From Hyphomicrobiaceae bacterium (GTDB lineage: Bacteria; Pseudomonadota; Alphaproteobacteria; Rhizobiales; JAKIUO01), in NCBI GenBank assembly GCA_021647535.1, contig JAKIUO010000002.1:1-37939 (forward strand): a stretch of DNA of 37,939 nucleotides, in the 5' to 3' direction. Positions 903 to 34,954 of this stretch are shown one piece after another. Position 1 is the stretch's first letter; every line of letters starts with the position of its first letter. Made by a program: the position numbers and the translations under genes. Under the pieces are notes generated by a model, which was given only the letters and a program-made list of their open reading frames with translations, was not told the origin of the DNA and did not search any database.

Positions 903-997
903 TTGACTTATATTCGCTCCCCCAAACACAAAAACAGCTCTGAGCTTTCCAATTGACTGTCATACCAACGAACAGGCAGATAAAGAGGATCTCGGTC

Positions 998-2062
998 ATG
1001 AAAAGTTCATTCACAGCTTCCCTGAAAACAATGGCCCTCTTGTTGTCCTCTCTGTTGATCCCCACGCAGGCTTTTGCTCATCTGCGCTGGTTCGTAGACG
1101 TCAACAGCCCCAGTGCACAAGCCTATCAACAAGCCATGAGCCGCTTTCAATTTGATCTTGTTTATCTGTTCCTGCTGGCTGGTGCCGTTGGTTTTGTCAT
1201 CAGCGCCATCACCCTTGATAATCTTGCCCGCAAAAACCAGTTGGTTGGAGCTCTGCTCAATGCGCCCATCAAGCTGCCTTTGCATTTGGAGTGGCGGCTG
1301 GTTTCTATTCTTCTTGGCCTGATGTTGTTGATGAACAGCCATCACGGTGTTTTGCTGGCCCCCAACCTGCCCACATCTGACGAATTCATGTTCAAGGCCG
1401 CGATTATCGTCCAGTTTGTTGTTGGCCTGCTGTTCATCTCTCAGCTATCCTTTGTCCTCTCGGCAATTGGCACCTTCTGCCTGGCACTGATTGCCTCCAT
1501 CATCACCCCGGCGATGATCATGATCGACTATGTTTTTGAATTTGCCGGTATCATGGTGGCCTTCTACCTGATCGGCCCCAGCATTAGCCGCATTGATCGC
1601 ATCTTGTGGCCCGCTTCCAGTCCCCGCAATGAACAAATGGCTGTGGCCGTTCTGGCTTTGTCACTTGGTTTGCAACTGGCCGAACTGGCCCTTCACAACA
1701 AGCTCTTGAACCCCGGTCTGGCCTTGATCTTTATTGACGATAACGGCTTTCTCAACTTCATGCGGATGATTGGTTTCACGTCCTTCAAAAACATCTATTT
1801 TGTCTTTGCTGGCGGGATTGCCGAATTGATACTGGGAACGCTTCTGGTCTTTGGCATCGCCACCCGCTTTGTTGCCCTTGGCATTGGCGCCATCTTCACT
1901 CTGACTTCTGCGATCTTTGGACTGCACGAACTGATCGGTCATATTCCAATCATGGCAGTCGTCCTGCTGATCGCCCTGCATGGCAAAAAGATCGGCCTGT
2001 TGTCTCTGGTGCGCTCCACTTTGAAAGAGCAGAATGCTAAAGCAGTGCCGCTGACCAACTAA
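998..2062 (+). CDS. multi-pass inner-membrane protein of unknown function
   Basis: The ORF is 953-2062. I moved the start to Met16 (ATG 998), which is preceded by AAAGAGGA. An N-terminal signal/anchor (MKSSFTASLKTMALLLSSLLIPTQAFA) is followed by about 9 hydrophobic helices. No family recognised. Confidence 0.7.
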   Translation: MKSSFTASLKTMALLLSSLLIPTQAFAHLRWFVDVNSPSAQAYQQAMSRFQFDLVYLFLLAGAVGFVISAITLDNLARKNQLVGALLNAPIKLPLHLEWRLVSILLGLMLLMNSHHGVLLAPNLPTSDEFMFKAAIIVQFVVGLLFISQLSFVLSAIGTFCLALIASIITPAMIMIDYVFEFAGIMVAFYLIGPSISRIDRILWPASSPRNEQMAVAVLALSLGLQLAELALHNKLLNPGLALIFIDDNGFLNFMRMIGFTSFKNIYFVFAGGIAELILGTLLVFGIATRFVALGIGAIFTLTSAIFGLHELIGHIPIMAVVLLIALHGKKIGLLSLVRSTLKEQNAKAVPLTN

Positions 2063-3161
2063 TCAGCTCTATAACGCATTGCGAGAAGGCTATACCAAGC
2101 GCATTTGAGGCCTGTTTTCCATCGACACCGTGGGCTGGAACCGTTGATTTGATAAGGCGCGAGGCGATCACCTTGCCTTCACCATTCATCAACTTGGCCA
2201 TGAACTCCACATGTCCCCTTGGTTGGGGCTTGCTGGTATCAATATGAAAACCTCTGATATTAACAAGCAGCTTATGGTCGCTCTCTTCTCCTTCAAGCGG
2301 TCGCAACACCGAACTCGCATAACCGGCGTTTTCATAACTCTGGATAATTTTTTCCTGAATGAGGTTAGGCAGATTGTCCGACCAGCGCGCGGTACCGATC
2401 GGCTGGCTTTGCCCGGCTTTGGGACGCATCTGGATCTTGTCCGTATTCAGTGCCAGCAAGACGGTTGGGTCATTAATCACCAGCCGCCATGTGGGTTTGC
2501 TGGCCAAGGGCTTAAAATCCGTTGGCGGCAGCAGATCATAAATAAGCCCGACCTTTTTGCCCTTGCCACCAGCCATGCGTTCCAGACCGTTCAATATGTT
2601 TTCAACACGCTGCTTGTTGCCGCCAAGCGATTTGGTAAAGGTCGATAAATTGGCGATGGTGTCTTTTAAGGGTTGGCGGTTTTCCGTCAATATATCATTG
2701 ACCTTGACGAGCACGCTGCTGATCTCGCGTCCCCAGTCATTACCAGCACGATTACTGGCGCGCAGCACAGGCAGTTCTGTTCCCTTAGACAGCAAAATTG
2801 GCGCGCCAACACTCCCCCCCTCCAGCGAAATGGCGGCAATACCAGTGAGCCCTTGATAATTAACGCCGACCATCGTGTCTGAACGCACACCAATATCCGC
2901 GTTCACACTGATCACCGCCTCAAGCCGCGCCGGGTTTTGCGGGTCCAGCGACAAGGCGCTCACTTCCCCGACACGCAGGCCGTTAAAAAACACACTGCCC
3001 CCGACCAACAACCCTGAAACGGGCCGGTTGAACTCGACCTTGTAGAGCTTCGCCCCCGAGCTGCCGACCGTGTTGTTCAGCCAATAGGTGAAGCCGAATA
3101 AAAGAGCAATGACAGCCAGCGTAAATGCCCCGATCACTTCGAAACGTGCCTTGAATTCCAT
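2037..3161 (-). CDS. MlaD/MCE-family substrate-binding protein fused to an ABC-transport auxiliary (PqiC/YmbA-like) C-terminal domain
   Basis: An N-terminal TM helix is followed by the MCE motif YKVEFNRPVSGLLVGGSVFFNGLRVGEV. The C-terminal ~170 aa resemble the ABC_trans_aux lipoprotein domain. It is the last gene of the permease-ATPase-MCE operon. Confidence 0.8.
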   Translation of the reverse strand: MEFKARFEVIGAFTLAVIALLFGFTYWLNNTVGSSGAKLYKVEFNRPVSGLLVGGSVFFNGLRVGEVSALSLDPQNPARLEAVISVNADIGVRSDTMVGVNYQGLTGIAAISLEGGSVGAPILLSKGTELPVLRASNRAGNDWGREISSVLVKVNDILTENRQPLKDTIANLSTFTKSLGGNKQRVENILNGLERMAGGKGKKVGLIYDLLPPTDFKPLASKPTWRLVINDPTVLLALNTDKIQMRPKAGQSQPIGTARWSDNLPNLIQEKIIQSYENAGYASSVLRPLEGEESDHKLLVNIRGFHIDTSKPQPRGHVEFMAKLMNGEGKVIASRLIKSTVPAHGVDGKQASNALGIAFSQCVIELISWSAALL

Positions 3162-3171
3162 AATCTTCGCC

Positions 3172-3972
3172 TTATGTTGTGCCGTTCACTAAACGCGCCG
3201 CCAGCCCACCGCTACGCTTGCCCTGAAAATAGGATTTAACCCATGGATGTGTGCTCGCCAGCATCTCGCTGATCGGGCCAGTCGTCACCACCTTGCCATC
3301 GGCCAGAACGGCGATGCGGTCAGTGATCGCATAAAGGCTTTCCAGATCATGGGTGATCATGAAAACCGATAGGCCGAGCGTTCGTTGCAAGGAGCGTATG
3401 AGCTCATCAAATTCGGCAGCTGAAATCGGGTCAAGACCAGAAGTGGGTTCATCCAGAAACAAAAATTCCGGGTCCAGCGCCAACGCCCGCGCCAGCGCCA
3501 CGCGCTTGGTCATGCCGCCCGATAATTCGGCAGGAGTCTTGTGGCGATCATCCGCCGACAAACCCACCATCTCCAGCTTGGCAATGGCCATTTCATCCAT
3601 CAGCCCAGGCGAGAGATTGAGGTTTTCGCGCATCTGAAACTGGATGTTCTGCAGAACGCTCAAGGATGAAAACAGCGCCCCCCCCTGAAACAAGATGCCT
3701 GTACGGCGCTCTAGCGCGGCCCGCCTTGTCGTGCCAAGCCCCTTGAGATCACGGCCAAAGATTTCGATCTGGCCCTGACGCTTTGGCAATAATCCAAGCA
3801 GGGTGCGCATGAGTACGGTTTTGCCCGACCCCGAGCCGCCGACAATGCCCAGAATTTCACCGCGAAAGACATCAAGCGATAGCCCATTGAGGACAAGATG
3901 CTCGCCAAAGCCGACGACAAGATCTGTTGTCCGCAATATAATCTGACCGCTTTTGTCACGTCCTTCACTCAT
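3172..3972 (-). CDS. ABC transporter ATP-binding protein, MlaF-like
   Basis: Walker A GGSGSGKT, signature LSGGMTKR and Walker B FLFLDEPTSGLD are present. I moved the start to Met19 (nt 3972), 4 nt after the upstream stop at 3977-3979. Confidence 0.9.
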   Translation of the reverse strand: MSEGRDKSGQIILRTTDLVVGFGEHLVLNGLSLDVFRGEILGIVGGSGSGKTVLMRTLLGLLPKRQGQIEIFGRDLKGLGTTRRAALERRTGILFQGGALFSSLSVLQNIQFQMRENLNLSPGLMDEMAIAKLEMVGLSADDRHKTPAELSGGMTKRVALARALALDPEFLFLDEPTSGLDPISAAEFDELIRSLQRTLGLSVFMITHDLESLYAITDRIAVLADGKVVTTGPISEMLASTHPWVKSYFQGKRSGGLAARLVNGTT

Positions 3973-3976
3973 AGGC

Positions 3977-5125
3977 TCACATCCCAATGGCTGCAAAAAA
4001 GATGGCAAACAGGCCATCAAGGACAATCACCATAAATATACTTTTGACCACGGAGCGCGTTGTGTGATGACCAAGCGAGGCCGCACTGCCCTGCACTTTC
4101 AGGCCCTCCATACAGGCAATAATGCCAATCACCGCGCCCATGAAGGGGGCCTTGATCATGCCCACCTGGAAGTGCGTGATATTGATGGCCTCCTTCAGGC
4201 GCGCCACAAATATATCCGAGCCCATGCCGCCATAGGCAAAGGCCACCAGCCCGCCGCCATAAAGCGCCGCCATGGCCCCCAGAAAGGTCAATAGAGGCAT
4301 GGCGATGATGAGCACCAACACGCGCGGCAGGATTAATATTTCGACGGGGTCAAGCCCCATGGTTTTAAGGGCGTCGATTTCTTCGCGCATTTTCATCGAG
4401 CCAAGTTCAGCCGTAAAGGCACTGCCCGAGCGCCCGGCCACCATGATCGCCACCAGCAAAACACCGAGCTCACGCAGCACCAATATGCCGACCATATCGA
4501 CAACATAGACATCAGCACCAAATTTACGAAAATGAAAAAAGCCCTGCTGGGCAATGATCGCGCCAATCAAAAAGGTGATGAGCAAAATAATAGGTACCGC
4601 CCGCAAGCCGACCCGGTCAAGCTGATGAACACTGGCGGTGAAACGAAAGCGGCGCGGCTGCACCACGGCGCGAAAAAACGCGGCGCTCAAAGTGCCCAGC
4701 ATATTATTGAAAGAGCGCACATCACTCCACACCCCATGCACGGCCCGACCGATATTGGAGATGCCCCCACGAACAGCGCGCACAAAGGAAAAGTCAGGAG
4801 CCGCAGCCTCTTGCGCCTGCAGATTGCGCCCTTGCATATCCTCAAGCAATTTAAGCCCTTGTTGAGCTTGTCCGGTCACCACAAAGGTCAATCCGCGCAG
4901 ACCAGCCTCGCGGCGCAAACGCTCGACCAGCCAGGCCCCATAAGTGTCGAACGCGCCAACCTGAGACATTTCAAGAGAGACAGAGCTGGCCGCGCTGGCC
5001 TGCTCCATCCACTCTTCAAGCCGTGCCTCAAGCTCACCGGCCCTCAAGGCCGTCCAGGAACCACCGGCAACAAGCTCAAGCCTGCCCTCCTTAAGGGTTC
5101 CGCTTAACAAGGCGTCACTGGCCAT
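3977..5125 (-). CDS. MlaE-family ABC permease with N-terminal STAS-like domain
   Basis: The C-terminal ~260 aa carry the MlaE hallmark MREEIDALKTMGLDPVE and 5-6 TM helices. The N-terminal ~110 aa are soluble and STAS/MlaB-like. Confidence 0.85.
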   Translation of the reverse strand: MASDALLSGTLKEGRLELVAGGSWTALRAGELEARLEEWMEQASAASSVSLEMSQVGAFDTYGAWLVERLRREAGLRGLTFVVTGQAQQGLKLLEDMQGRNLQAQEAAAPDFSFVRAVRGGISNIGRAVHGVWSDVRSFNNMLGTLSAAFFRAVVQPRRFRFTASVHQLDRVGLRAVPIILLITFLIGAIIAQQGFFHFRKFGADVYVVDMVGILVLRELGVLLVAIMVAGRSGSAFTAELGSMKMREEIDALKTMGLDPVEILILPRVLVLIIAMPLLTFLGAMAALYGGGLVAFAYGGMGSDIFVARLKEAINITHFQVGMIKAPFMGAVIGIIACMEGLKVQGSAASLGHHTTRSVVKSIFMVIVLDGLFAIFFAAIGM

Positions 5126-5647: not shown

Positions 5648-5817
5648 TCAATACTCTCCCTGAAATCCACTTGCCCTGTTCCCCCCAGAACACAGCTTAA
5701 ATTTTAACATATAATTTCTTCTGATGGGCTCACAAATGATTACTGATTAAGTAAATAATTAGCGATCCCCTCAAACATATGGGTTCATCTCCGCCAACTT
5801 CCAGCCTGCTAATCATT

Positions 5818-5854
5818 ATTCCAACCGCCCTAAATATTGCCCCATTACACCGGA
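5818..5854. repeat. Family-B element, orphan degenerate left-end fragment (B4)
   Basis: attccaaccgccctaaatattgccccattacaccgga matches the left end of 28677-28713 at 33 of 37 positions. Confidence 0.7.
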
Positions 5855-5934
5855 ATGGCCTCACCTTATCTCTAAATTATTTTCTGATGTGACCAGATTA
5901 TGGTTCTGACACGAGAAAAGATTCATGATATATT

Positions 5935-6199
5935 ATACCAACCCACAAAACTATTGACCTATATCACCGCAAGGAACAGGTTTGTCAGGGAGACGCTTGT
6001 TGTGCGGTGGTACTGACCCATAAACAACGAGCTTTGAAGCTGACACGCCTGTTCCTCCGGCCCTTTGGCTGGGGCATAGTGGCCCATCTGACTGGCACAC
6101 TGTTCTTGCAAGATACCAGTATCGAGCTGCGCCCAGTGTACCAGCCATATGAGCCACTATGATCCCATGATATAGGTCAATAGTTTTGTGGGGTGGTAT
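5935..6199. mobile_element. Family-B MITE-like element, variant copy B1 (265 bp, 32-bp TIRs)
   Basis: The TIRs are ataccaacccacaaaactattgacctatatca (5935-5966) and its reverse complement (6168-6199), with 1 mismatch. The right-hand ~90 nt of the core are close to 28860-28948: ggcccatctg...gcaagataccagtatc.agctgcgc...accagccatatgagcc.ctatgatccca. Confidence 0.8.
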
Positions 6200-6220
6200 T
6201 ATGTATCCAAGGAGGAAAAC

Positions 6221-7237
6221 ATGTCTGGCAAGAAGTTAAAGAAACTCTACTGCGCTCTGGCTGAAACCTATTTGAGACACCTCGTGGTCAGTCTCTTGCT
6301 GTTGGTCCCTGGCTTATTTTATGCTTTTGTTGCGACGGCAGAAAAGGCGATTTCCAAACCTTTGGAGACGAGGAGTGTCGCCGATACCATCGTTGGGCAC
6401 CCGCTGGAAGCACCGGTCAACAGACGCCCGGTCTCTGAAAAATTCTGGTGGAGCGATGACTGGTATCTGCGTGGCAAACTCATTGTGCCGACCAATCATG
6501 AAGTGATTGAGCGCGCCACAAGCTATATCAATCCTGCTGATGGCACCGAAATTCCAGCAATCATCTATCGCCCAAAGGGCAAAGGCAAATATCCTGCTAT
6601 TCTGTTCCAGCATGGACGACGTGGGCTGGACGAGATGGTGCAACGTCTGCCCCGCAGGCTGGCGGCAAGGGGCTTTGTTGTCCTTGCTCCCAATGTCTAT
6701 GACGCCCGCTTTATCGAAAAATTCCCTATGGAGCACAAGCCCGAAACCGAAGGCGATACAGCCGCCGGGATTGAATTTTTGCTCAAGCAACCCGATATTT
6801 CGACGAGCAAAATCTGTCTCTATTCCCATACGCGTGGCGGTTATTATACATTGAAAGCGGCGGTTGATTTCAAGCATCAGCACAAGCATGTCAGCTGCTA
6901 TGCGTCCAGCTATCCCCATTGGCAAAATCCCAATGCCGTCGAGCCGGCGCAGGTTTATCGCTATGCACCAGAGGCCGACCGGCTGACCATCCCGGCAATG
7001 ATTTTTATTGGCGAATATGAACAATATCAGCGCCGCCGCTCGATTGAAACGGCAGTTAAATTCATGAAACAGGCGGGCCGTGACATCAAGCTGGTGATCT
7101 ATCCAGGGGTTGGCCGTGGCTTTGATTTTCGCCCGCCAAGCATACGTACTTTTGCCGATGATCTAGCCACCAAAGACCAGATCATCCGCCTCGACAGGTT
7201 TTTTCGCCAGCACCTGTCCCAATGGCAAAAAAAATAA
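6221..7237 (+). CDS. dienelactone-hydrolase-like alpha/beta hydrolase with N-terminal membrane anchor/signal
   Basis: I moved the start to ATG 6221, preceded by AAGGAGG at 6209-6215. The earlier part of the ORF lies inside repeat B1. The protein shows the DLH-like pattern YPAILFQHGRRGL...GFVVLAPNVY...YSHTRGG. Confidence 0.7.
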   Translation: MSGKKLKKLYCALAETYLRHLVVSLLLLVPGLFYAFVATAEKAISKPLETRSVADTIVGHPLEAPVNRRPVSEKFWWSDDWYLRGKLIVPTNHEVIERATSYINPADGTEIPAIIYRPKGKGKYPAILFQHGRRGLDEMVQRLPRRLAARGFVVLAPNVYDARFIEKFPMEHKPETEGDTAAGIEFLLKQPDISTSKICLYSHTRGGYYTLKAAVDFKHQHKHVSCYASSYPHWQNPNAVEPAQVYRYAPEADRLTIPAMIFIGEYEQYQRRRSIETAVKFMKQAGRDIKLVIYPGVGRGFDFRPPSIRTFADDLATKDQIIRLDRFFRQHLSQWQKK

Positions 7238-7253
7238 AACCGGTCCTCATACC

Positions 7254-7312
7254 ATACCAACCGCCCTTAATATTGACCCATTGCATGGGATCATATTAAG
7301 GGCGGTTGGTAT
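7254..7312. repeat. Family-B collapsed hairpin copy (B3), likely also a terminator for the hydrolase gene
   Basis: The sequence is ataccaaccgcccttaatattgacccattgcatgggatcatattaagggcggttggtat. An 18-bp perfect stem (ataccaaccgcccttaat/attaagggcggttggtat) encloses a 23-nt loop. It lies 17 nt after the stop at 7237. Confidence 0.75.
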
Positions 7313-7513
7313 AAAAACATACGCAGAAATTAGCGCATGGATTTATGGCTGCCCTAAGGACATCCGCGGGAATAAGTGAATAGATTTGAGGCCGGAGTTT
7401 TGTTTGTCAGCAAGGCGTGCAAAGGGGCGTGTAGCTGACTACATAACCCTTTGCAGAACGAAGCTGGCGGACAAAAATACAAGTCGAATCGTTCAGTTAT
7501 TTTTGCGGCTGTC

Positions 7514-8164
7514 CTAAGCATGGACTTCAACTTGCATCGTGCGAGCGGGACCAGAATTAGCTCCAGAACCATCTGTAACGACCACAGCAAAACTGGCAAA
7601 TTGCGCCTCTTTGCCATCATGAACAAAAATAACCGTCCCTTTTTCGAGCTCGCTTTGCGTAAAGCTGTGCATTGTCACTTTTGGCTTGTCAAGACAGGCC
7701 ACAAAACCGTTTTGCATGGCCGAAACGGCAAAAGTCAGATCTTTCGCGTCATCATCTGGATCAATCGCCGTGAGATCCTGCGTTGTCAGGCGAACAGCCT
7801 TACCCTTATTGACAACCAGCTTCATGTCTCCCGACACAGTAGGGGGTATATTGCGCACATCAGCAGACAGCTCGCCGCCCTCTTTCATCGTCAGCTGACC
7901 ATATAAAATAGTGCCATGAGCCGAACCGCTCGCGCCTATATCAAGCAGACCTTCAACCCTCATCTCGCCTTGCAAAAAGCCGTTTAAGATAATATTGCGC
8001 GCCCGCACATTGCCAATCACTTTGCCGCCCTCATGGATGATCAACTCTCCCACATTAACAACACCATTGATCAGCCCAAAAACCTCGACACGAGCTGCTT
8101 GTGCCGTGACTTCTCCGTCAATGACCATTTCTTTTGAAATGACCGTTTCTATATGATCTATCAT
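7514..8164 (-). CDS. bactofilin-domain protein fused to a cadherin-like (CSPG/Cadherin_3-type) C-terminal domain
   Basis: The N-terminal ~105 aa show the bactofilin beta-helix periodicity (IDGEV...VFGLINGVV...GGKVIGNVRARNIILNGFLQGEMRVEG...GTILYGQLTMKEGGELSADV). The C-terminal ~100 aa carry LTTQDLTAIDPDDDAKDLTFAV...FTQSELEKGTVIFVHDGKE...FAVVVTDG. Confidence 0.7.
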   Translation of the reverse strand: MIDHIETVISKEMVIDGEVTAQAARVEVFGLINGVVNVGELIIHEGGKVIGNVRARNIILNGFLQGEMRVEGLLDIGASGSAHGTILYGQLTMKEGGELSADVRNIPPTVSGDMKLVVNKGKAVRLTTQDLTAIDPDDDAKDLTFAVSAMQNGFVACLDKPKVTMHSFTQSELEKGTVIFVHDGKEAQFASFAVVVTDGSGANSGPARTMQVEVHA

Positions 8165-8290: not shown

Positions 8291-8848
8291 CTACTTTTTG
8301 AAAAACCGGGAAAACAGTCCATCAACAGAAACAAAACCGGCCCCGCGAATAACCAGATAGACCAGCGGGAACAACCATAACAGGCGCTGATCGGCAATCA
8401 CGGCGTCCTGAAATCTGTCGAAGGGAGCCCCAAGCGTCTTTTCGTCAATATTGTGAAAATATATATCAACATACGTCATCACGGCAATGAAGCCGATCAT
8501 GCCCAAAGCCGACAGACGGGTAAACAGGCCAATGACAACCAGCACCGGCAGCACAAACTCGGCATAGGTGCCCATCGTCACAATGATCCCCCAGGGAATG
8601 AAACTTATTTTGTCCGTGTCATACCCCACACTTTTGGTCAGCGTCGGCAGGATTTGCACATAAGCTCCGGTGCCCGGTGTCAAAAAGCCGGGAAAACCAC
8701 TGCCAACCTTGGTCAGCGCCGAATTCAGGAAATAGCCCAGCAAGACGCTGGCAAAGGTCAGGCGTGCCGCCAGCCCCAAAAACCAGTCCCCTGCCACTTT
8801 TTGAATGATCGCAAACAGTCCCGCAAACAAATGATATAGAAAACTCAT
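8291..8848 (-). CDS. bufD: DoxX-family membrane protein (BufD-like)
   Basis: I moved the start to Met32 (nt 8848), preceded by GGGAG. The protein has four predicted TM helices. It sits immediately after the DUF2063 gene, as in bufferin operons. Confidence 0.75.
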   Translation of the reverse strand: MSFLYHLFAGLFAIIQKVAGDWFLGLAARLTFASVLLGYFLNSALTKVGSGFPGFLTPGTGAYVQILPTLTKSVGYDTDKISFIPWGIIVTMGTYAEFVLPVLVVIGLFTRLSALGMIGFIAVMTYVDIYFHNIDEKTLGAPFDRFQDAVIADQRLLWLFPLVYLVIRGAGFVSVDGLFSRFFKK

Positions 8849-8951
8849 AATAACTCCCGTTTTTTTAGAGTGCTTCCGGCAAAAGCCGATACCAGTTTTT
8901 CGATAAGAAGCACAACAATTCAAGAAACCCAAGTCGTTCATTCCTGCAATT

Positions 8952-9752
8952 TCATGCGGAATGAACCTGGTGTTTTTTTAGTGCAGCAACGCACCCTGAC
9001 GTAAACAGCGTCTCTAGGGCTTGCGCTGGCTCAAACTCTTTAAAAGTATGGCCCTTGTCGATACTCTTGCCAAGAGAAAGCCCGGCCTTTAAGGAATGCA
9101 GGAAAGCATGGGTCCCGCGATTAATCACACGTAGTTCGACCTCAAACAAGGGTCTCGTCAGCAAAGCGCATTGCGCCTCTTGCCCAGACGCCTCAAAATC
9201 GATAACTTTCCCGCCCTCGCCCTCGCCCTCCCCCTTTTGATGAGATGACCAGATGGAAACAACGCGATGGTCTGATTGTAGCAACTGCACGTCAGGGCAA
9301 AAGGCAAAGCACAAATTGATAAAATCCTCTTCGCCAAAGGCAGACAGGGCATCAATCGCAAGCGGTGTTTGGTCAGCGCTGTGATAGGCCGCGAGCCAGG
9401 CCCATTCCAGACGGGCCACATCAGCCAGATAGGGCAGAGATTGCGCCGGTTCAAAAGCCGCGATAAAATCACCATAGCCCGCGCCATAGTTCAGCATGAC
9501 TGGTGAAGTGGGTAGATGTTCCCCGGCAAAAACCCGCGCCATGGCCGTCGCGAATTCTTCGCCAACCAGCTGCGCCACGACGGGATAGCTATCAAGCAGC
9601 GCTTGCGTCAGGCTGACCATGACATTGTTGCGATAGACATTAAAGCGCTTGCCTGAAGGTTCACCAGCTGTCCTTGTGACAAAATCCGGCACACCTCTGG
9701 TGGGGTCGAGCAGGTTTTTGGCAAATAGCGCCTGTTGCTTATCCCAAACCAT
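8952..9752 (-). CDS. bufC: DUF2063-family RiPP-recognition partner protein (BufC/MbnC-like)
   Basis: I moved the start to Met38 (MVWDKQQALFAKNLLDP...). The N-terminus has the typical DUF2063 motifs (FNVYRNNV...L...YPVV..LVGEEFF..A). It overlaps the DUF692 gene by 14 nt. Confidence 0.8.
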   Translation of the reverse strand: MVWDKQQALFAKNLLDPTRGVPDFVTRTAGEPSGKRFNVYRNNVMVSLTQALLDSYPVVAQLVGEEFATAMARVFAGEHLPTSPVMLNYGAGYGDFIAAFEPAQSLPYLADVARLEWAWLAAYHSADQTPLAIDALSAFGEEDFINLCFAFCPDVQLLQSDHRVVSIWSSHQKGEGEGEGGKVIDFEASGQEAQCALLTRPLFEVELRVINRGTHAFLHSLKAGLSLGKSIDKGHTFKEFEPAQALETLFTSGCVAALKKHQVHSA

Positions 9753-10653
9753 GCGCTGGCGCTCCTTGCCGGGACAAAGCAGCAGGCCTATGCTGGAGGG
9801 CCTCAATATTTTTTTGCGCTTTTTGGCTTTCTGCAAACAATGTCTGCCAGCTCGGAAGATCATTATCCCATTCGATCAAGGTCGCCACAGCGCCAATTTG
9901 TGCAAGTGCCTGCTCATACAGCTCCCAGACTTTCCCGCAGACCTTGCGGTCATGGGCATCAATCAGCAAAGGCGCACCGGCATCATCCTTATCGCTCGCA
10001 TGTCCGGCCAAATGGATCTCCCCCACATGCTCATGGGGAAATTGTTCGATATATTTTTGGGGATCTTTATGGTGATTACGGCAGGACACAAAGACATTAT
10101 TGACATCCAGCAACAGACCGCAGCCTGTCTTTTGCGCGATGGTTTGCAAAAACTCGATTTCATCAATCGTGCTATCTTCAAAGGCGATATAGGTGGCCGG
10201 GTTTTCCAGCAATAAAGTGCGCCCGAGATGGTCCTGTGTCTGTTCCACATGATCGCACACGGTTTGCAATGTTTCACTGGTAAAAGGCATTGCCAGCAGG
10301 TCGTTGAAATAGCGCCCCTGATGGGTCGACCAGGCCAGATGTTCGGAAAAGCTCTGTGGCTGATAGTGATCAACAAGAATTTTCAAGCGATCCAGATGAT
10401 CTTTATCCAGCTCTCCCGCCCCGCCAATGGACAGGCCAACCCCATGGATGGACAAGGCATAATGTTCACGAATTTGCGAGAGGGTTCGGTGCGGCATTCC
10501 ACCAGCACCCATATAGTTTTCGGGGTGGATTTCAAACCAGCCAATGGCCGGGCGCTCTTCCAGAATCTCACGAATATGCACGGGTTTCAGACTGACACCG
10601 GCAGCGCGAGGTAGCCCCTTGCAAGGGTGTGCTGCATCAAATGAGTGTGGCAT
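9739..10653 (-). CDS. bufB: DUF692 multinuclear non-heme iron oxidase (MNIO; BufB/MbnB-like)
   Basis: Motifs present: GVSLKPVH...FEIHPENY, SIHGVGLSIGG, FSEHLAWS, LLLENPATYI, LLLDVNNVFV, EIHLAGH, LIDAHD and LIEWDND. I moved the start to Met21 (nt 10653), because a hairpin occupies the N-terminal extension. Confidence 0.9.
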   Translation of the reverse strand: MPHSFDAAHPCKGLPRAAGVSLKPVHIREILEERPAIGWFEIHPENYMGAGGMPHRTLSQIREHYALSIHGVGLSIGGAGELDKDHLDRLKILVDHYQPQSFSEHLAWSTHQGRYFNDLLAMPFTSETLQTVCDHVEQTQDHLGRTLLLENPATYIAFEDSTIDEIEFLQTIAQKTGCGLLLDVNNVFVSCRNHHKDPQKYIEQFPHEHVGEIHLAGHASDKDDAGAPLLIDAHDRKVCGKVWELYEQALAQIGAVATLIEWDNDLPSWQTLFAESQKAQKNIEALQHRPAALSRQGAPAHGLG

Positions 10654-10695
10654 AACCCACTTTGCCCCCTTGCCATTCCAGTCCAGATAAAGGAC

Positions 10696-10731
10696 CGGAA
10701 CAGCACACACCAAACGGTCAGCGCTGTTCCG
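10696..10731 (-). promoter_or_regulatory. stable hairpin in the bufA-bufB spacer (possible attenuator / partial terminator)
   Basis: cggaacagc (10696-10704) pairs perfectly with gctgttccg (10723-10731) across an 18-nt loop. The minus-strand 3' flank is tcctttatct. The plus-strand flank is atttttgtg. Confidence 0.45.
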
Positions 10732-10798
10732 ATTTTTGTGCGCTCACAGTTTTTGCAAGCACGATACAAGTCTTGTTTAGGCCTTATTTAGGCAAACC

Positions 10799-11098
10799 TT
10801 ATTTAGGATTGTCGCGATCAAGCGGCTTCAGGCTGCCTTTACGGCCACCCGGCAGTTCCATGCCAACGCAAGTGCCCTTGGGAACGAGTGTCCAGGCATT
10901 TCCCTGATAATCAAGCTTTGAGGTTCCGGCACAAGTGGTGCCAGCGCCTGCTGCGCAATCATTTTTGCCTGCTATTGAAACGCCATAGCATTCCACTTTT
11001 TCAGCAGCACTTACTTCAACAGAAGTCAGCGTGGTCATTGTAAAAGCTGTTGCAACGGCACCTGCGACCAGCGCGGCTGAAGCCAATTTCTTACTCAT
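10799..11098 (-). CDS. bufA: DUF2282-family secreted Cys-containing RiPP precursor (bufferin, BufA1-like)
   Basis: 99 aa with a Sec signal peptide (likely cleavage after VSA31). The core is [45 protein letters not shown], with Cys at 37, 48, 56 and 77. The RBS GGGAGA precedes the ATG. Confidence 0.9.
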
Positions 11099-11360
11099 TT
11101 GGTAGTCTCCCTGAGATATATTTCATCAATTAGGCCCGCTCAAAAACAGCTGAACCAAAAGCCCTGTCATCAGATCAAACAAGATGATCTTCGATCCCGA
11201 TAAGAAACAGGAAATGATATTTTTCATTGATTGTACAATAAAGAAACTTCACGGTTCCGTGTGGCATAGTTTTTTTTGTACAAGGCGGTTTCCCATCAGT
11301 TTACCAAGCTGAGCAGCAAACCATGACCATTCTGGGGCAACATCATCTCAGGAGAGTAAC

Positions 11361-11570
11361 ACCCCAGGGCAATTCAATTCTTGCGCAACTCGCTTCGCGA
11401 AAGGGCTATCGCCCATACCCATTCGGGGAAAGCCTTCCCCGAACCCCTTCCATTTTATTTTAAAGATCAAAAAGGGGTGGGTTTGGGAGGGCTCCTCTCA
11501 AGCGGGTGTGGGCGGCAGCCCGCTTGCGAAGCAAAGCTTTCGAGAATTAAATTGCCCTAAGTACCCCCCA
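11361..11570. repeat. Family-A palindromic intergenic mosaic element, copy A2 (about 45-bp imperfect TIRs)
   Basis: The left arm (11361-11402, accccagggcaattcaattcttgcgcaactcgcttcgcgaa) is an imperfect reverse complement of the right arm (11523-11569, cttgcgaagcaaagctttcgagaattaaattgccctaagtacccccc). The same module occurs at 815-856 in A1. Confidence 0.8.
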
Positions 11571-11613
11571 ACACAATGAATTGAAGTCGCCAAAGCCCCT
11601 AATGTTCACTTGA

Positions 11614-16759: not shown

Positions 16760-17446
16760 TTAAACCTGTTCTTCCTGTGCCGTTAAGATAGCGGCCAGAG
16801 ACTCAAAGGGAGCACTTCCCGACGGCCCCCGCATTGCCCCAGGTGGTGGCGACTGTGGTCGAGCAGATACCAGCTCTTCCAGAGTTACTTCTCCATTGCC
16901 ATCTCGATCAAGATTGGCAAAAATCTCTTGTGCGGAGCGCGGACCACCAGCCTGTCCTGCTCTTCCCGGCTTCTCTGCTGGCTGCGCCTCTGTTTCCATA
17001 AACTCTTCCATAGACAAGCCGCCACTTTGATCCTCATCGGCCGCATCAAAAAGTTCGGAAACCACTTCCTGAAGAGCCAGCAACAGCTCAAGAGTATCAG
17101 AAGAAAACTGCCCTTGAGGAGCCGGTGGTTTCCCGGCAAGAAACTCTTCTTCGTTTATCTGACCATCTTCATTTTGGTCGATACGGGCAAATATTTCCTC
17201 CGCTCGCAGAGCCATACCGGAAGGTTTTTCCGGTCCGCCCGGGCCTCCAGGCCCATGTGGTCGATCCGCATGAAGCTTTGTAAACTCTTCGAGAGACAGG
17301 CTCCCATTTTGATCTGCATCGCCAGATTTAAATTTTTCGGCAATATTTTCCTGCATTCTGGCGCGCATATTAGAGTAATCGGGCATTCCCCCCGACAATC
17401 CACCAATTGGCATCGTTTTCTTCCTTTGCATCTGATAAGGCTCCAT
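16760..17446 (-). CDS. EF-hand calcium-binding protein with four EF loops
   Basis: Four canonical 12-residue loops are present: DADQNGSLSLEE, DQNEDGQINEEE, DEDQSGGLSMEE and DRDGNGEVTLEE. They are separated by Pro/Gly-rich linkers. Confidence 0.8.
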   Translation of the reverse strand: MEPYQMQRKKTMPIGGLSGGMPDYSNMRARMQENIAEKFKSGDADQNGSLSLEEFTKLHADRPHGPGGPGGPEKPSGMALRAEEIFARIDQNEDGQINEEEFLAGKPPAPQGQFSSDTLELLLALQEVVSELFDAADEDQSGGLSMEEFMETEAQPAEKPGRAGQAGGPRSAQEIFANLDRDGNGEVTLEELVSARPQSPPPGAMRGPSGSAPFESLAAILTAQEEQV

Positions 17447-26712: not shown

Positions 26713-27276
26713 CTAGGGCTCCAGTTCACTGTCCCAGTAGAGATAATCAATCCAGCTTTCGTGCAGAAAGTTGGGCGGGAAAGAGCGCCCGTTGCGATGC
26801 AATTCATAGACCGTTGGGCGATAAGGGGCCTGCATGGGCAACATGCCGATATCTTTGGCGTAGCGCGCCCCTTTTTTCAGATTGCACGGCGAACAGGCCG
26901 TCACCACATTATCCCAGCGCGTCAGCCCGCCCTTGGAGCGCGGGATCAGATGGTCAAAAGTCAGATCATCGAGATCCCCACAATATTGGCAGGTAAAACG
27001 ATCCCGCAAAAATACGTTAAAGCGGGTAAAGGCTGGATAAAGCGCCGGGCGCACATAGGTTTTCAGGGCCACCACACTGGGCAGAGCGATTTCACATGTC
27101 GGGCTGTGAACTTTGCGATCATAGCGATCAACAATATTGACCCGATCCAGAAACACCGCCTTGATGGTGGCCTGCCAGTTCCACAACGACAAGGGATAGT
27201 AACTGAGGGGCCGGTAATCGGCGTTCAGCACCAGAGCAGGCCAGGTTTCCGGCGGCGTCCCTTTGGTGATCATCAT
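26713..27276 (-). CDS. HNH endonuclease
   Basis: HNH motif: CQYCGDLDDLTFDHLIPRSKGGLTRWDNVVTACSPCNLKKG. Confidence 0.85.
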   Translation of the reverse strand: MMITKGTPPETWPALVLNADYRPLSYYPLSLWNWQATIKAVFLDRVNIVDRYDRKVHSPTCEIALPSVVALKTYVRPALYPAFTRFNVFLRDRFTCQYCGDLDDLTFDHLIPRSKGGLTRWDNVVTACSPCNLKKGARYAKDIGMLPMQAPYRPTVYELHRNGRSFPPNFLHESWIDYLYWDSELEP

Positions 27277-28647: not shown

Positions 28648-28676
28648 ATCAGCTTTAAGTACGCCCAGACCCTATC

Positions 28677-28980
28677 ATACCAACCGCCCTTAATATTGAC
28701 CCATTGCACCGGAGCGATTTTTCCCAGCAGGGCTGGAGCACGAGGCGACGTGGTACTGGTACCATTAGCCGAGTGATCCGGTGCTGCTGGGAAAAAGCAC
28801 CCGGCCCTTATGCGCTCAAACAGCGCCAGAGATAGCGCGGCTTTGATGGGTGGGACATAGCGGCCCATCTGGCGGGCATTTTGCGTTTGCAAGATACCAG
28901 TATCAAGCTGCGCACAATCTACCAGCCATATGAGCCGCTATGATCCCATGCAATGGGTCAATATTAAGGGCGGTTGGTAT
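28677..28980. mobile_element. Family-B MITE-like element, full-length copy B2 (304 bp, perfect 32-bp TIRs)
   Basis: ataccaaccgcccttaatattgacccattgca (28677-28708) is the exact reverse complement of 28949-28980. An internal 13-bp stem pairs tttttcccagcag (28718-28730) with ctgctgggaaaaa (28784-28796). No ORF is present. Confidence 0.85.
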
Positions 28981-29055
28981 AATACACCGTATGTGTACTA
29001 TCGCATCTGTGCTTTTTGCCTATAGGTTAATGGTACAGGTGGGAAACCAAAGCTA

Positions 29056-29451
29056 TTACACTTTGTCCGCTTTCGACAGGCCTTCAAGGATCGGGCAATC
29101 GGGGCGGTGGTCTCCATGGCAATCTTTGATCAGCTGTTGCAGGGTGCCGCGCAGACTCTCCAGATGGGTAATCTTGCGTTCGATCTCTTCCAGATGACGA
29201 GTGGCAACCTGCTTGACCTGTCTGCTGGTGCGGGTGTCATCTTCGTAGAGTGACAATAACAAACGACAATCCTCTATGGTAAAACCAAGGCTGCGGGCGC
29301 GTTGCAAAAAGCGCAGCTTGTAAACATCTTTTTGTGAATAATCGCGGTAGCCATTGTTCTGACGCAACGGTCGGACCAGGCCAATCTGTTCATAATAGCG
29401 CAGGGTTTTTACGGGCAGGCGGGTGGCCTGCCCGGCTTCTCCAATATTCAT
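29056..29451 (-). CDS. cueR: MerR-family Cu(I)-responsive transcriptional regulator
   Basis: The MerR HTH is [26 protein letters not shown]. The C-terminal metal loop CHGDHRPDC has C-x7-C spacing. Its ATG overlaps the copA stop (TAATG). Confidence 0.85.
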   Translation of the reverse strand: MNIGEAGQATRLPVKTLRYYEQIGLVRPLRQNNGYRDYSQKDVYKLRFLQRARSLGFTIEDCRLLLSLYEDDTRTSRQVKQVATRHLEEIERKITHLESLRGTLQQLIKDCHGDHRPDCPILEGLSKADKV

Positions 29452-31952
29452 TATTCTCCTCCCAGTTTAACACTCCGCAGGCGTAACGCATTGGCGATCA
29501 CCGAAACGGATGAAAAGCTCATGGCAGCGGCGGCAATGATCGGTGAGAGCAGCAGGCCAAACACCGGATAAAGCACACCGGCAGCGACGGGAACGCCAAG
29601 AGCATTGTAGATAAAGGCGAAAAACAGGTTTTGTTTGATATTGCGCATGGTGGCTTCAGAGAGTTTCCTCGCCCGCACAATGCCGCGCAAATCGCCTTTG
29701 ACCAAAGTGAAGCCAGCACTTTCCATGGCGACATCAGCCCCTGTACCCATGGCAATACCCACATCAGCCTGCGCCAGCGCCGGGGCATCATTGACACCGT
29801 CTCCGGCCATGGCGACCACGGCGCCTTCGCTTTGCAAGCGTTTGACAATCTTTGCCTTGCCATCGGGCAACACATCGGCCACCACCTCATCAATGTCGAG
29901 GTCAGCAGCCACGGCATTGGCGGTACGGATATTGTCACCGGTGACCATGATGATTTTCAGCCCCTCGGCTTTCAATTGTTGCAGCGCCTTTGGCGTCGTT
30001 GCTTTAACAGGGTCGGCTACGCTGACAATGCCCGCCAGCTCATTGTCGATGATGACAAACATGGCCGTTTGTCCCTTGCTCCGCAGATCATCTGCTTTTG
30101 CAGTCATCTCGCCTGCCTCAAGGTCGAAGGCGGCCAGCAGCTTGTCATTGCCAAGCGCTACAATCTTGCCGTCGATCCTGCCGCGTACCCCCTTGCCGGT
30201 GAGGGCTTCAAAATCATCGGTTTTGAAAAGTGAGAGATCACGCGCCTTGGCCCCTTTGACGATGGCTTCAGCCAGCGGATGTTCACTGCCGCGCTCCAAT
30301 GAGGCCACCAGTTGCAACAGCGCCTTCTCCTCGGTCTTGCCCGTAGCAAGCACCTCCATCAGACGTGGTTTGCCCTCGGTCAGCGTGCCGGTTTTATCGA
30401 CAATCAGCGTATCAATAGAGGCAAAGCGTTCCAGACTTTCAGCATTTTTGATCAGCACACCAGCCTGTGCACCGCGTCCGCTCGACACCATGATCGACAT
30501 GGGAGTGGCCAGACCCAGCGCACAGGGACAGGCGATAATCAAAACGCTGACAGCGGAAATCAAACCGTAAGCCATGGCCGGAGCTGGTCCCCAGATTGAC
30601 CAGACAATAAAGGCGATGACCGCGATCAGCAGCACGACAGGTACAAAATAACCCGCCACCATATCAGCCAGCTTCTGGATCGGTGCGCGCGAGCGTTGCG
30701 CCTCGGCCACCATATTAACGATCTGCGACAGCATGGTGTCCGAACCGACGCGCTCAGCCCGCATGAGGATCGAGCCGGTGCCGTTGAGCGTCCCGCCCGT
30801 TACATCATCGCCTGTATTTTTTTCCACCGGTACGGCCTCGCCTGTCAACATGCTTTCATCAATACTGGAGCGCCCTTCAGTTACCGTCCCATCTACCGGC
30901 ACTTTCTCGCCGGGACGCACGCGCAAAATATCGCCATGCTGCACGCTTTCAAGCGGCACTTCCTCCTGCGAACCGTCTTCACGCACAATCATTGCCGTTT
31001 TGGGAGCCAGATCAAGCAGTGCCCGGATGGCACCGCCGGTGCGCTCGCGGGCTTGCAATTCCAGCACCTGTCCAAGCAAAACCAGCACGACGATCACCGC
31101 CGCCGCTTCATAATAAACCCCGACCGATCCATCAGCGGCGCGAAACGCATCGGGGAAAATGTCGGGCATGACCGTGGCAATGACCGAATAGACAAAGGCC
31201 GTGCCCGTGCCAATGGCGATCAGTGTGAACATGTTGAGATTCATGGTCTGCAAACTTTTCCAGCCGCGCACGAAAAACGGCCAGCCAGACCACAGCACCG
31301 CAGGTGTGGCTAGGATCAGTTCGATCCAGTGAGAGGTTGATTTGCCGATCCAGCTTTCAATCGGCAACCCCACATAGCCGCCCATGGCCAACACCAGCAA
31401 GGGAACGGCAAATATGGCTCCAACGACAAAGCGCTTCTTGAAATCAACCAGCTCAGGGTTAGGGCCTTCATCTCCCGCAGGCACGCCTTTGGGCTCCAGT
31501 GCCATGCCGCATTTGGGGCACTCTCCAGGGCCTTCTTGAATAATTTCAGGATGCATGGGACAGGTGTAGAGCGTGCCCTCAGGCATGGGTTCGGCCTGGG
31601 TTTTTCCCTCCAGATAGCTTTGCGGGTCAGCGGTAAATTTGTCCTCACAGCTGCTTGAGCAGAAATAAAAGTTTTCGCCGCCCTGCTTGTGCATATGGCT
31701 GGCGCTGGCACGATCAACCTTCATGCCGCAAACGGGATCTTTGGCCTCGATATACTCATCCGGGTCAACAGCAAAGCGCGTCTCGCAGCCCATGGAACAG
31801 AAAAAATAATCATGGCCCTTGTGGTTGGTACTGTATTTCGCCTTGTCCGCATCAACAGCCATGCCACAGACCGGATCTTTCAGCTGCGCTTGCCTTTTGC
31901 CTTCATTATGACCTTCATTTCCGTGTGAATGCGAGTGCGAGTGAGCCATCAT
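29451..31952 (-). CDS. copA: copper-translocating P1B-type ATPase
   Basis: Motifs CPC ([12 protein letters not shown]), DKTGTLT, TGE and GDGVNDAP are present. The N-terminus has His-rich [14 protein letters not shown], two DPVCGM (TRASH/YHS-like) motifs and CPMH...CPKCGM. I moved the start to Met24 (31952), downstream of the predicted promoter. Confidence 0.9.
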
Positions 31953-32028
31953 CTTTGTCCCTTGTGCAACGCTGCTCCTCCCCTTCGGGCAAGCAGGAAT
32001 CAAATTTCCATAACCTTCCAATGAGTAG

Positions 32029-32060
32029 AGGGTGGGCGTTCCAGTAGATGGAAGGTCAAG
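32029..32060 (-). promoter_or_regulatory. MerR/CueR-type promoter-operator for copA-cueR
   Basis: The minus strand reads TTGACC-ttccatctactggaacgcc-CACCCT. This gives a 19-bp spacer containing the dyad CCTTCC-N7-GGAA. Confidence 0.7.
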
Positions 32061-32093
32061 AAAGAAAATAAAAAAACATTTTTTTGCCTCGCC

Positions 32094-34015: not shown

Positions 34016-34954
34016 ATGACCGATCATTCTGGACATAAGATGCCTGATTTCAAAAGCGCTTCTCCCGAAAAAGACAGAGCCTTGAAAATTTCTGGGTGGC
34101 TCACCGGAGTATATTTTCTGATCGAGTTGGGCATCGGAATTTACACCGGTTCTGTGGCGGTCATTTCTGACGCTTTTCATACCTTTTCCGCTGTTGGAGG
34201 GGTAGTGCTGGCTTACGTTGCTGCGCGCATGGCCCTTCGCCCTACCAGTACCCGTCATACTTTTGGATGGTACCGGGCGGAAATAATCGGCGCTCTGCTG
34301 AACGGTGTGTTTCTGGCCATTATGGCAGTGATCGTTCTGGTCATGGGTTATATGCGCCTGCAAAATCCTGTTGATTTGCCAACCACACCGATGCTGTTCG
34401 CCGCAGTTGGAGGCCTGATCACCGAAGTGATCTCGCTCAAGCTATTGTTTAGTGCCCAGAAGGATGATTTGAATATGCGCGGTGCTTACTGGCATATTAT
34501 CCAGACCTTTGTGGGCAGTATTTTAATTATTGTCACAGCCCTTGTGATCAAATTCACCGGTTTTCTTGCCATAGACCCGCTGCTTGGGATGGCTTTTGGT
34601 CTGGTGCTGCTCTATGCCTCCTGGGGGATCATGCGTGAAGCCCTGGAAGTCCTGATGGAAACCACTCCGGCGGATATGGATTTAAAAGCTGTGATCACGC
34701 GTCTGGAAGAACTGCCGGAAATAGCAGATGTCCACCATGTTCATGCCTGGACATTGACCTCGGACAAAACTGTGTTCTCCGCCCATATTCGCATAAACAA
34801 GAAAGGGGACAGCGAGAAAATACTGACAAAAGCTCAAAACTTGTTGCGCAACGATTACAATTTCTCCTTCGCCACTCTGCAGATCGAAACGAAAGAGATG
34901 TCAGAAGAGCATGCAACAGACCTCGACTTTTTGCATATGGAAGCGATGAAATAG
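34016..34954 (+). CDS. cation diffusion facilitator (CDF) family divalent-metal exporter, CzcD/ZitB-like
   Basis: Motifs SDAFHTFS and HTFGWYRAEI, six TM helices and a C-terminal cytoplasmic domain (VHHVHAW) are present. Confidence 0.85.
   Translation: MTDHSGHKMPDFKSASPEKDRALKISGWLTGVYFLIELGIGIYTGSVAVISDAFHTFSAVGGVVLAYVAARMALRPTSTRHTFGWYRAEIIGALLNGVFLAIMAVIVLVMGYMRLQNPVDLPTTPMLFAAVGGLITEVISLKLLFSAQKDDLNMRGAYWHIIQTFVGSILIIVTALVIKFTGFLAIDPLLGMAFGLVLLYASWGIMREALEVLMETTPADMDLKAVITRLEELPEIADVHHVHAWTLTSDKTVFSAHIRINKKGDSEKILTKAQNLLRNDYNFSFATLQIETKEMSEEHATDLDFLHMEAMK

Follow-up and report, generated by a model that had tools for sequence, protein, structure and literature searches.

Organization of the buf locus

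The stretch of DNA analysed here, hereafter the window, is a 38-kb segment (37,939 nt) of contig JAKIUO010000002.1 from a Hyphomicrobiaceae bacterium. Four intact minus-strand open reading frames (ORFs) occupy positions 8291-11098 and were designated bufA, bufB, bufC and bufD. An initial annotation of this DNA had placed four linked minus-strand genes here and read them as a cluster for a bufferin, a peptide synthesized ribosomally and modified after translation (RiPP) that is made with the help of a multinuclear non-heme iron oxidase (MNIO). The ORFs were found where that annotation had put them, and the results described below indicate that the locus is very probably a canonical Buf1-type bufferin biosynthetic operon with the order bufA-bufB-bufC-bufD.

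bufA, 10799..11098, minus strand: 99-amino-acid (aa) precursor; GGGAGA ribosome-binding site
bufB, 9739..10653, minus strand: 304-aa MNIO/DUF692 protein; ATG at 10653
bufC, 8952..9752, minus strand: 266-aa DUF2063 protein with RiPP recognition element (RRE)-like part, MNIO partner; AAGGAG ribosome-binding site
bufD, 8291..8848, minus strand: 185-aa DoxX-family membrane protein; GGGAG ribosome-binding site

bufB and bufC overlap by exactly 14 nt and the DoxX gene comes next, in agreement with the annotated coordinates. The mechanical ORF of bufB begins with TTG at 10713; the ATG at 10653 was preferred, since BufB of relatives is 298-305 aa long. bufD most likely starts at ATG 8848 rather than at 8941, judging from the 185-aa orthologues, the GGGAG site and a DNA alignment of the bufC-bufD junction. 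The order bufA-B-C(-D) was found in most of the 80 genomes retrieved with BufB, and bufA-B-C-D in more than 50; DoxX orthologues occupy the same position in most of these loci, and a DoxX gene is common in Buf1 clusters without being obligatory. The closest BufB from a species representative belongs to a Terasakiella metagenome-assembled genome (69%).

Assignment of the four proteins by profile searches

Searches with profile hidden Markov models, the check that had been proposed for the initial annotation, were carried out with all four proteins, and the DUF2282, DUF692/MNIO, DUF2063 and DoxX assignments all passed the cutoffs. BufA matched Pfam DUF2282 (PF10048) with 78.2 bits (cutoff 22.4; E = 4.5e-22), so that a miss with this profile, which would have spoken against a bufferin, was not seen. 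BufB scored 354 bits (E = 6.5e-106) with Pfam MbnB_TglH_ChrH and 388.1 bits, at a cutoff of 310, with the NCBIfam equivalog MNIO_BufB (NF050167). The scores were 72.2 bits (E = 4.3e-20) for BufC with Pfam DUF2063 (PF09836) and 28.9 bits (cutoff 23.6) for BufD with Pfam DoxX (PF07681).

Profiles of the related MNIO classes were compared in the same way. Among the NCBIfam models for HvfB, ApyH, MbnB and ChrH, the window MNIO stayed under each model's own cutoff, and its score with the MbnB profile was only 59 bits. The Hvf equivalog models were likewise not reached (HvfB, 238.7 vs 360; HvfC, 37.5 vs 142; HvfX, 17.6 vs 80), and the motifs EGKC, GKCG and KCGE are absent from every frame of the window. 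All the features by which a Buf1 cluster can be recognised from sequence are present, and those of the Hvf/oxazolin and methanobactin classes are missing. The earlier reading of the locus as a Buf1-type cluster is thus supported by the profiles, the Cys spacing and the gene order.

The precursor BufA

BufA1 proteins are 80-120 aa long and carry a Sec signal peptide and four conserved Cys (PMC11626156). The window protein agrees with this description. Its Cys are at positions 37, 48, 56 and 77, with the spacing C-x10-C-x7-C-x20-C, and the predicted Sec signal peptide covers aa 1-31, with an MSKK n-region, an Ala/Val/Thr-rich h-region and a V-S-A/A site; cleavage is expected after A31, between VSA and AE. 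The length, the four Cys with their spacing and, by inspection, the Sec signal are as initially annotated. The predicted core is 68 aa long, with Cys6/17/25/46 in core numbering, and has an unmodified monoisotopic mass of 6953.40 Da; for the mature peptide, about 6943.3 Da (-10 Da) is expected.

Homologues of BufA number 7988, many of them labelled 'BufA1 family periplasmic bufferin-type metallophore' in NCBI and UniRef names, and nearly all of the best 120 of these 7988 are 96-104 aa long. Neither A31 nor any of the four Cys varies in an alignment of 20 homologues, which includes proteins of Roseibium, Stappia, Pseudovibrio, Rhodobium, Hyphomicrobium and Thalassospiraceae, and the residues around the Cys of the modified type are conserved. 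An AlphaFold (AF2) model built from the 20 sequences places strands at 34-39 and 68-73, matching the published two-stranded sheet of Buf1. As in the Buf1 sheet, the precursor has the Cys-Tyr strand and a Trp eight positions ahead of CysIV (W-x7-C).

The 22-residue tail that follows the last Cys had been pointed out as a local peculiarity. The tail is there, but it is not peculiar to this locus: R86, G88, S89, L90, L93, R95, D96 and P98 are invariant in the 20-sequence alignment, so the tail is a conserved part of the subfamily. The same region is the best-confidence part of the weak BufA model.

BufB, BufC and BufD

BufB carries all the DUF692 motifs that had been listed for it (EIHPENY, SEHLAW, LLENP, LLDVNN, EIHLAGH and EWD). 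The iron ligands of MbnB are H54, H90, E133, D163, N166, H192, D208, H210 and E239 (PMC9060507). When BufB was aligned with HMMER to the MbnB and 3BWW chains, H70, H105, E150, D183, N186, H214, D232, H234 and E261 were obtained as the nine equivalents, and these positions are invariant in 85 BufB sequences. Loss of iron ligands in an alignment had been named as evidence that would speak against the MNIO assignment; all nine are intact.

The partner BufC gave no match in the PDB by sequence alone, with either single-sequence or profile searches, and the relationship needed a structure model. Foldseek with the AF2 model of BufC (predicted local distance difference test score, pLDDT, 92.9) returned as top match the chain-A partner subunit of the TglHI holoenzyme (8HCI/8HI7; TM ~0.6, E = 1e-5), and the DUF2063 structure 3DEE was also found (E = 4e-4). 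These model-based matches suggest that BufC, whose C-terminal domain is putatively RRE-like, is a DUF2063 protein and a candidate MNIO partner. Two local features of bufC are as follows.

GEGEGEGG-coding stretch, 9210..9233, minus strand: BufC aa 174-181; contains a perfect (GAGGGC)3 tandem repeat
Insertion of 113 nt, 8859..8971, minus strand: between bufC and bufD, flanked by the 10-nt direct repeat CTAAAAAAAC

The GEGEGEGG stretch had been noted as a special feature of the DUF2063 protein. It is present at aa 174-181, just after the conserved SIWSAHQ motif, but as a special feature it does not stand, being a repeat in a variable disordered loop. The segment aa 171-192 that contains it is the sole low-confidence segment of the AF2 model; the loop is 28-36 residues long in 93 homologues, and the only other GE repeat is shorter (GEGE in P0287). 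GEGEGEGG is a case of microsatellite slippage in a disordered, hypervariable loop of BufC.

The 113-nt insertion changes the C-terminus of BufC, and with it bufC and bufD are 103 instead of 13 nt apart. It contains hairpins and is missing from the related loci L081, L082 and L084; no second copy was found in the window or in the loci compared. BufD shows four hydrophobic segments by eye, without a topology tool. In Caulobacter, BufD is dispensable for modification and for Cu protection (PMC11626156).

Comparison with Caulobacter Buf1 and a proposed pathway

The closest described counterpart is buf1ABCD of Caulobacter vibrioides (CCNA_03363-03366; Leprevost et al. 2024, PMC11626156), which has the same gene order, the same four Pfam families and a Sec precursor. 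The MNIO and DUF2063 genes are adjacent in both, and the window pair overlaps. The two precursors share a 68-aa core (predicted for the window), the C-x10-C-x7-C-x20-C spacing, the CysI-Tyr strand and the Trp 8 residues before CysIV. The window core differs in that its part before CysI is shorter by 6 residues and its tail after CysIV longer by 6 (22 vs 16). Unlike Caulobacter buf1, the window locus is without nearby SigF/NrsF genes and has a different promoter, which is conserved within its own lineage. The comparison with Caulobacter was made on published features (order, spacing and core length).

The chemistry of Buf1 is established, with 5-thiooxazoles, 1:1 Cu and a disulfide (PMC11626156). 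In the 68-residue core with Cys12, 23, 31 and 52, CysII and CysIII each lose 4 Da to become 5-thiooxazoles, CysI and CysIV form a disulfide, and the two-stranded sheet was confirmed experimentally (PMC11626156). The 5-thiooxazole assignment has since been reinforced and extended to sister EGKCG peptides (PMC13097082; 2025-2026 preprints). The initial annotation had stated that the Cys of bufferins become 5-thiooxazoles; this holds for the two central Cys of Buf1 but not for the outer two, which form the disulfide.

The copper function and the product chemistry of the window locus are predicted by homology to C. vibrioides buf1ABCD. By this analogy, the bufA product would be translated as the 99-aa precursor, and in the cytoplasm a complex of BufB, the multi-iron oxidase, and BufC, with its DUF2063 part and peptide-recognition domain, would use O2 to oxidise C48 and C56, four electrons each, to 5-thiooxazoles. 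The peptide would be exported by Sec, cleaved by signal peptidase after A31 and closed by a C37-C77 disulfide. The mature 68-residue peptide would fold around a two-stranded sheet, bind one Cu via N and S of the two thiooxazoles and so buffer excess periplasmic copper. BufD (DoxX) would act as an accessory membrane protein. Transcription would probably start about 120 nt upstream of bufA, from a regulated promoter specific to the lineage, and a hairpin after bufA would probably give more precursor than enzyme mRNA.

Other described operons share parts of this organization. In Cupriavidus metallidurans and Legionella pneumophila, the gig (gold-induced genes) operons have the same four genes, DUF2282/DUF692/DUF2063/DoxX, and are orthologous (PMC11626156); a difference is that metal induction is documented for them. 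The hvfABCX/oxazolin systems and the EGKCG 'captophorins' (fontiphorin, gonophorin and bulbicupramide) likewise have an MNIO, a DUF2063-RRE partner, DoxX and a Sec precursor, and their products are copper-binding with Cys converted to 5-thiooxazole (PMC13097082). Their precursors have repeated EGKCG motifs, whereas the window precursor is a folded DUF2282 domain, and the window BufB and BufC stay under the Hvf cutoffs. The methanobactin system MbnABC shares the nine metal ligands of its MNIO with BufB, and it too has a partner protein and four-electron oxidation of Cys to a copper ligand. It differs in its oxazolone/thioamide product, in a leader-peptide precursor that is not a Sec precursor and in being a secreted copper-acquisition chalkophore, not a periplasmic buffer; the window BufB gave only about 40 bits with solved MbnB chains.

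Upstream region of bufA and the hairpin following it

The region 5' of bufA was compared with that of related loci (L081-L084 and L088-L090), and a conserved footprint was recognised. In addition, a stem-loop was found in the spacer between bufA and bufB.

Putative buf promoter/operator, 11214..11283, minus strand: phylogenetic footprint, five lineages
Palindrome CACGGAACCGTG, 11261-11250, minus strand: in the putative buf promoter
TTGTACAA, 11238-11231, with a second copy at 11283-11276, minus strand: in the putative buf promoter
-10-like AAAAAT/TATCAT, 11224-11214, minus strand: in the putative buf promoter
Stem-loop CGGAACAGCGC...GTGTGCTGTTCCG, 10696..10731, minus strand: 11-bp G+C-rich stem in the 145-nt bufA-bufB spacer

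In the five lineages the footprint consists of CACG-N4-YGTG, 12 nt, TGTACA and a -10-like nnnAAT about 120 nt before the start codon. A single copy of the composite CACG-N4-YGTG-N12-TGTACA is present in the window (11232-11261), and L081-L084, L089 and L090 each have one upstream of bufA; it is kept with one mismatch in L088 and was found in none of 85 other loci. TTGTACAA has just two copies in the 38 kb, both in the putative promoter. A sigma-70 promoter scan found nothing upstream of bufA or of the downstream bactofilin-fusion gene (described below), and an Rfam scan of the whole window gave no matches, so no riboswitch or other known RNA lies upstream of bufA. We infer from the conserved sequence that the footprint is a regulated promoter on which an unlinked factor acts.

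The absence of an adjacent extracytoplasmic function (ECF) sigma/anti-sigma pair had been listed among the peculiarities of the locus. The absence was confirmed window-wide, since no plausible gene of the window has a Sigma70_r2/r4 or NrsF domain, and the related contigs examined also lack them. As a peculiarity it does not stand: sigma/anti-sigma genes occur in Buf1 clusters, but the core is formed by the precursor, MNIO, DUF2063 and DoxX genes (PMC12452194). That buf1 is under an unlinked, non-ECF regulator of the CACG-N4-YGTG and TGTACA palindromes, and that the same promoter may drive the bactofilin/cadherin-like gene, is a speculative and rather doubtful proposal. If true, periplasmic copper buffering would be tied to a cytoskeleton-like protein, and survival of the promoter after bufABCD deletion (see below) would be explained.

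CueR control of buf was considered and rejected, as no box like that of copA was seen at the buf promoter by reading. The window does carry a CueR-CopA-like pair at 29056-32021 (minus strand), 18 kb from buf, consisting of a MerR-family regulator and a P1B-type ATPase with YHS and HMBD domains. Its promoter (about 32030-32070) contains the operator-like CTTGACCTTCCATCTACTGGAACG; this operator is CueR-like, the box of the copA promoter reading CCTTCCA-N5-TGGAACG. A cation diffusion facilitator transporter gene is located at 34016-34954, and a conventional metal-efflux module is thus situated 18 kb from the bufferin operon.

The bufA-bufB spacer folds with a minimum free energy of -54.5 kcal/mol (z = -3.8 vs dinucleotide shuffles). 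In L084, L089 and L090, hairpins of 15-16 bp and unrelated sequence are found at the same position, and a U-run follows the hairpin of L090; this conservation rests on individual folds, as the five too-divergent hairpins were misaligned by MAFFT/RNAalifold. The hairpin was not called in a terminator scan. Post-precursor hairpins that raise the precursor transcript have been described for other RiPP operons. We infer that the bufA-bufB hairpin is a candidate partial terminator or mRNA stabiliser, raising the precursor over the enzyme transcript. It is not universal, since in many other Buf1 loci the bufA-bufB spacer is apparently shorter than about 30 nt (27 spacers, with approximate gene starts).

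The downstream bactofilin gene and loss of the cassette in a sister genome

The gene following bufD lies outside the conserved cassette. The deletion described in this section was delimited with the blocks given in the second line.

Bactofilin + Cadherin_3 fusion gene, 7514..8164, minus strand: 216 aa; Pfam matches
blastn blocks of L088 and L089: L088 5691-6030 against L089 4784-4988 and 7717-7856

The initial annotation was correct in placing a bactofilin-fusion gene on the same strand 126 nt downstream of bufD, but it is a positional neighbour only and not a peculiarity of the bufferin system. The order Tim44-MltA-Smr-bufABCD-fusion gene is common to six related loci (L081-L084, L089 and L090). 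The fusion gene was found in none of the 80 other buf loci; homologues with 43-50% identity occur in Dichotomicrobium, Hyphomicrobium and another metagenome, in unrelated contexts and with no buf genes. These homologues away from buf, together with the retention of the gene in L088, argue that it is a resident of the housekeeping region, not a bufferin partner. Between bufD and the fusion gene no terminator-like site was found, the nearest weak one being inside the 3' end of bufD, so the fusion gene may be co-transcribed with bufABCD.

The fusion family comprises about 80 proteins, nearly all of about 215 aa, with an N-terminal bactofilin and a C-terminal Cadherin_3 domain in near-uniform architecture. 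Cadherin-like domains are usually extracellular, and a signal peptide was not seen by eye in the window protein. A bactofilin-Cadherin_3 fusion without an evident export signal is an odd architecture.

In L088 the fusion gene directly follows Smr, with the same flanks and no buf. The intergenic region of L088 was too diverged from the window for the deletion boundaries to be read, and they were resolved with the closer pair L088/L089. With blastn, the L088 spacer aligned to L089 in two collinear blocks (80% and 77% identity), which adjoin each other and share 5 nt (ATTAA). What L088 lacks is a 2.7-kb segment that begins shortly before the ribosome-binding site of bufA and reaches to the stop codon of bufD; the buf promoter has been kept and stands directly upstream of the fusion gene. 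In a tree of 1026 aligned flank residues, L088 is sister to L089 (88% identity) and nested among cassette-bearing genomes. The simplest history suggested by these alignments is a clean deletion of bufABCD in L088. With L089, which has the cassette, L088 forms a natural clean pair for studying dispensability.

Alternative explanations

Several observations weigh against the interpretation of the locus as a functional, copper-buffering Buf1 operon. No copper-responsive regulator or recognisable CueR-type operator is present at the buf promoter. Expression of bufD could be affected by the 113-nt insertion that sets it apart from bufC, and the sister genome has deleted the cassette, which is hence dispensable at least there. 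The signal peptide of BufA was judged by eye and by conservation, without a dedicated predictor, and the AF2 model of BufA is of low confidence (pLDDT 55) and was used for strand positions only. The loss in the sister lineage, together with the altered BufC C-terminus and the microsatellite expansion in bufC, would also fit a cassette that is decaying or silent in the window genome. This appears very unlikely, for the four ORFs are intact and have good ribosome-binding sites, the catalytic ligands and the precursor Cys are all conserved, as are the promoter footprint and the hairpin, and bufD is dispensable in the model system (PMC11626156). Membership in a different MNIO-RiPP class, either oxazolin/HvfABCX-type EGKCG or methanobactin-like, is barely conceivable. 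It is true that hvfABCX uses the same four protein families and that weak NCBIfam matches to HvfB, HvfC and HvfX were obtained, but HvfB and HvfC are under their cutoffs while BufB passes its own, MbnB reaches 59 bits, the precursor is a DUF2282 protein with four Cys and the window has no EGKCG motif; this class assignment appears to be effectively refuted already by the profile scores.

With the Buf1 assignment retained, the same chemistry could serve a target other than copper, such as other soft metals (gold, cadmium or mercury) or redox/sulfur stress, perhaps with DoxX. For orthologous 'gig' operons, induction by gold, cadmium and copper or, in Bordetella, control by BvgAS has been described (PMC11626156), MerC fusions and doxX have been taken to suggest other metals or stresses (PMC12452194), and the buf promoter has neither a Cu regulator nor a CueR-like box in view. 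Caulobacter Buf1, however, picked copper from a metal mixture and binds it with dissociation constants (KD) of ~6e-15 M for Cu(II) and 7e-20 M for Cu(I) (PMC11626156), and the window precursor conserves both the fold and the residues that surround the modified Cys, so that a non-copper target seems unlikely. A five-gene unit, in which the bactofilin/cadherin-like gene is co-transcribed from the conserved promoter and acts with the bufferin system, is suggested by the short same-strand gap free of a terminator-like site, by an adjacency kept in six related loci spanning ~64-83% flank identity and by the promoter that L088 retains directly upstream of the fusion gene. It is nevertheless an unlikely arrangement: homologues at 43-50% identity live away from buf genes, none of the 80 other buf loci carries the fusion gene, extra conserved genes are very rare in published surveys (PMC12452194), and the fusion protein has no obvious signal peptide by eye, whereas bufferin acts in the periplasm.

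Place within the bufferin family

The bufferin family was described in 2024 (PMC11626156) and surveyed in 2025, with thousands of members (PMC12452194); in a 2026 re-classification within the 'captophorins', 21,424 precursor peptides were charted (PMC13097082). The names BufA1, BufB and BufC are already carried by Pfam and NCBI. bufABCD of the window is an ordinary, standard Buf1 cluster of this family, the largest MNIO-RiPP family known, and automatic annotation would name its genes. With it the family gains a further intact Buf1 cluster, from an uncultured lineage of marine type that is alphaproteobacterial by best matches and synteny, and nothing changes conceptually. Mild novelty is confined to the footprint of non-ECF type, the hairpin after the precursor gene, the natural deletion and the possible read-through into the bactofilin/cadherin-like gene. 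Through the conserved footprint a new regulator of bufferin expression could be reached, and the structurally conserved hairpin after bufA may set the precursor:enzyme ratio.

Other features of the window and of related loci

A variant Buf1 locus was seen in L091 (5001-9681), where two genes (231 and 299 aa), neither of them with a Pfam match, stand between bufA and bufBCD. Within the window, a 369-aa membrane protein encoded at 953-2062 (plus strand) gave a sub-threshold DoxX score (20.9 bits vs 23.6); its gene stands beside an Mla-like ABC transport cluster (2037-5125). The gene at 16760-17446 (minus strand) encodes a Pro/Gly-rich protein with multiple EF-hands and has the same neighbourhood in L088 and L090. 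Its interpretation as a Buf_EGKC/EF-hand fusion was rejected, as it has no Cys. A HipA-type toxin kinase gene (36047-37363, minus strand) and an HNH endonuclease gene (26713-27276, minus strand) are a hint that the right-hand part of the window includes mobile or accessory content.

Palindromic intergenic repeats of about 200-250 nt are present at 11375-11580 and 660-910, with termini GCTTCGCGAA(A/T)GGG and hairpins of -95 to -113 kcal/mol. One copy lies between the Smr stop codon and the buf promoter; it is also there in L084 and is missing in L081-L083. A second family, resembling repetitive extragenic palindromic (REP) sequences or miniature inverted-repeat transposable elements (MITEs), has ATACCAACCGCCCTTAATATTGACCCAT arms and is found at 5814-5854, 5927-5971, 6158-6207, 7250-7314, 28673-28713 and 28939-28984. 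The hairpin at 7254-7312 is near-perfect, with 28-nt arms that are 89% complementary, and copies of this family bracket the dienelactone-hydrolase gene at 6188-7237.

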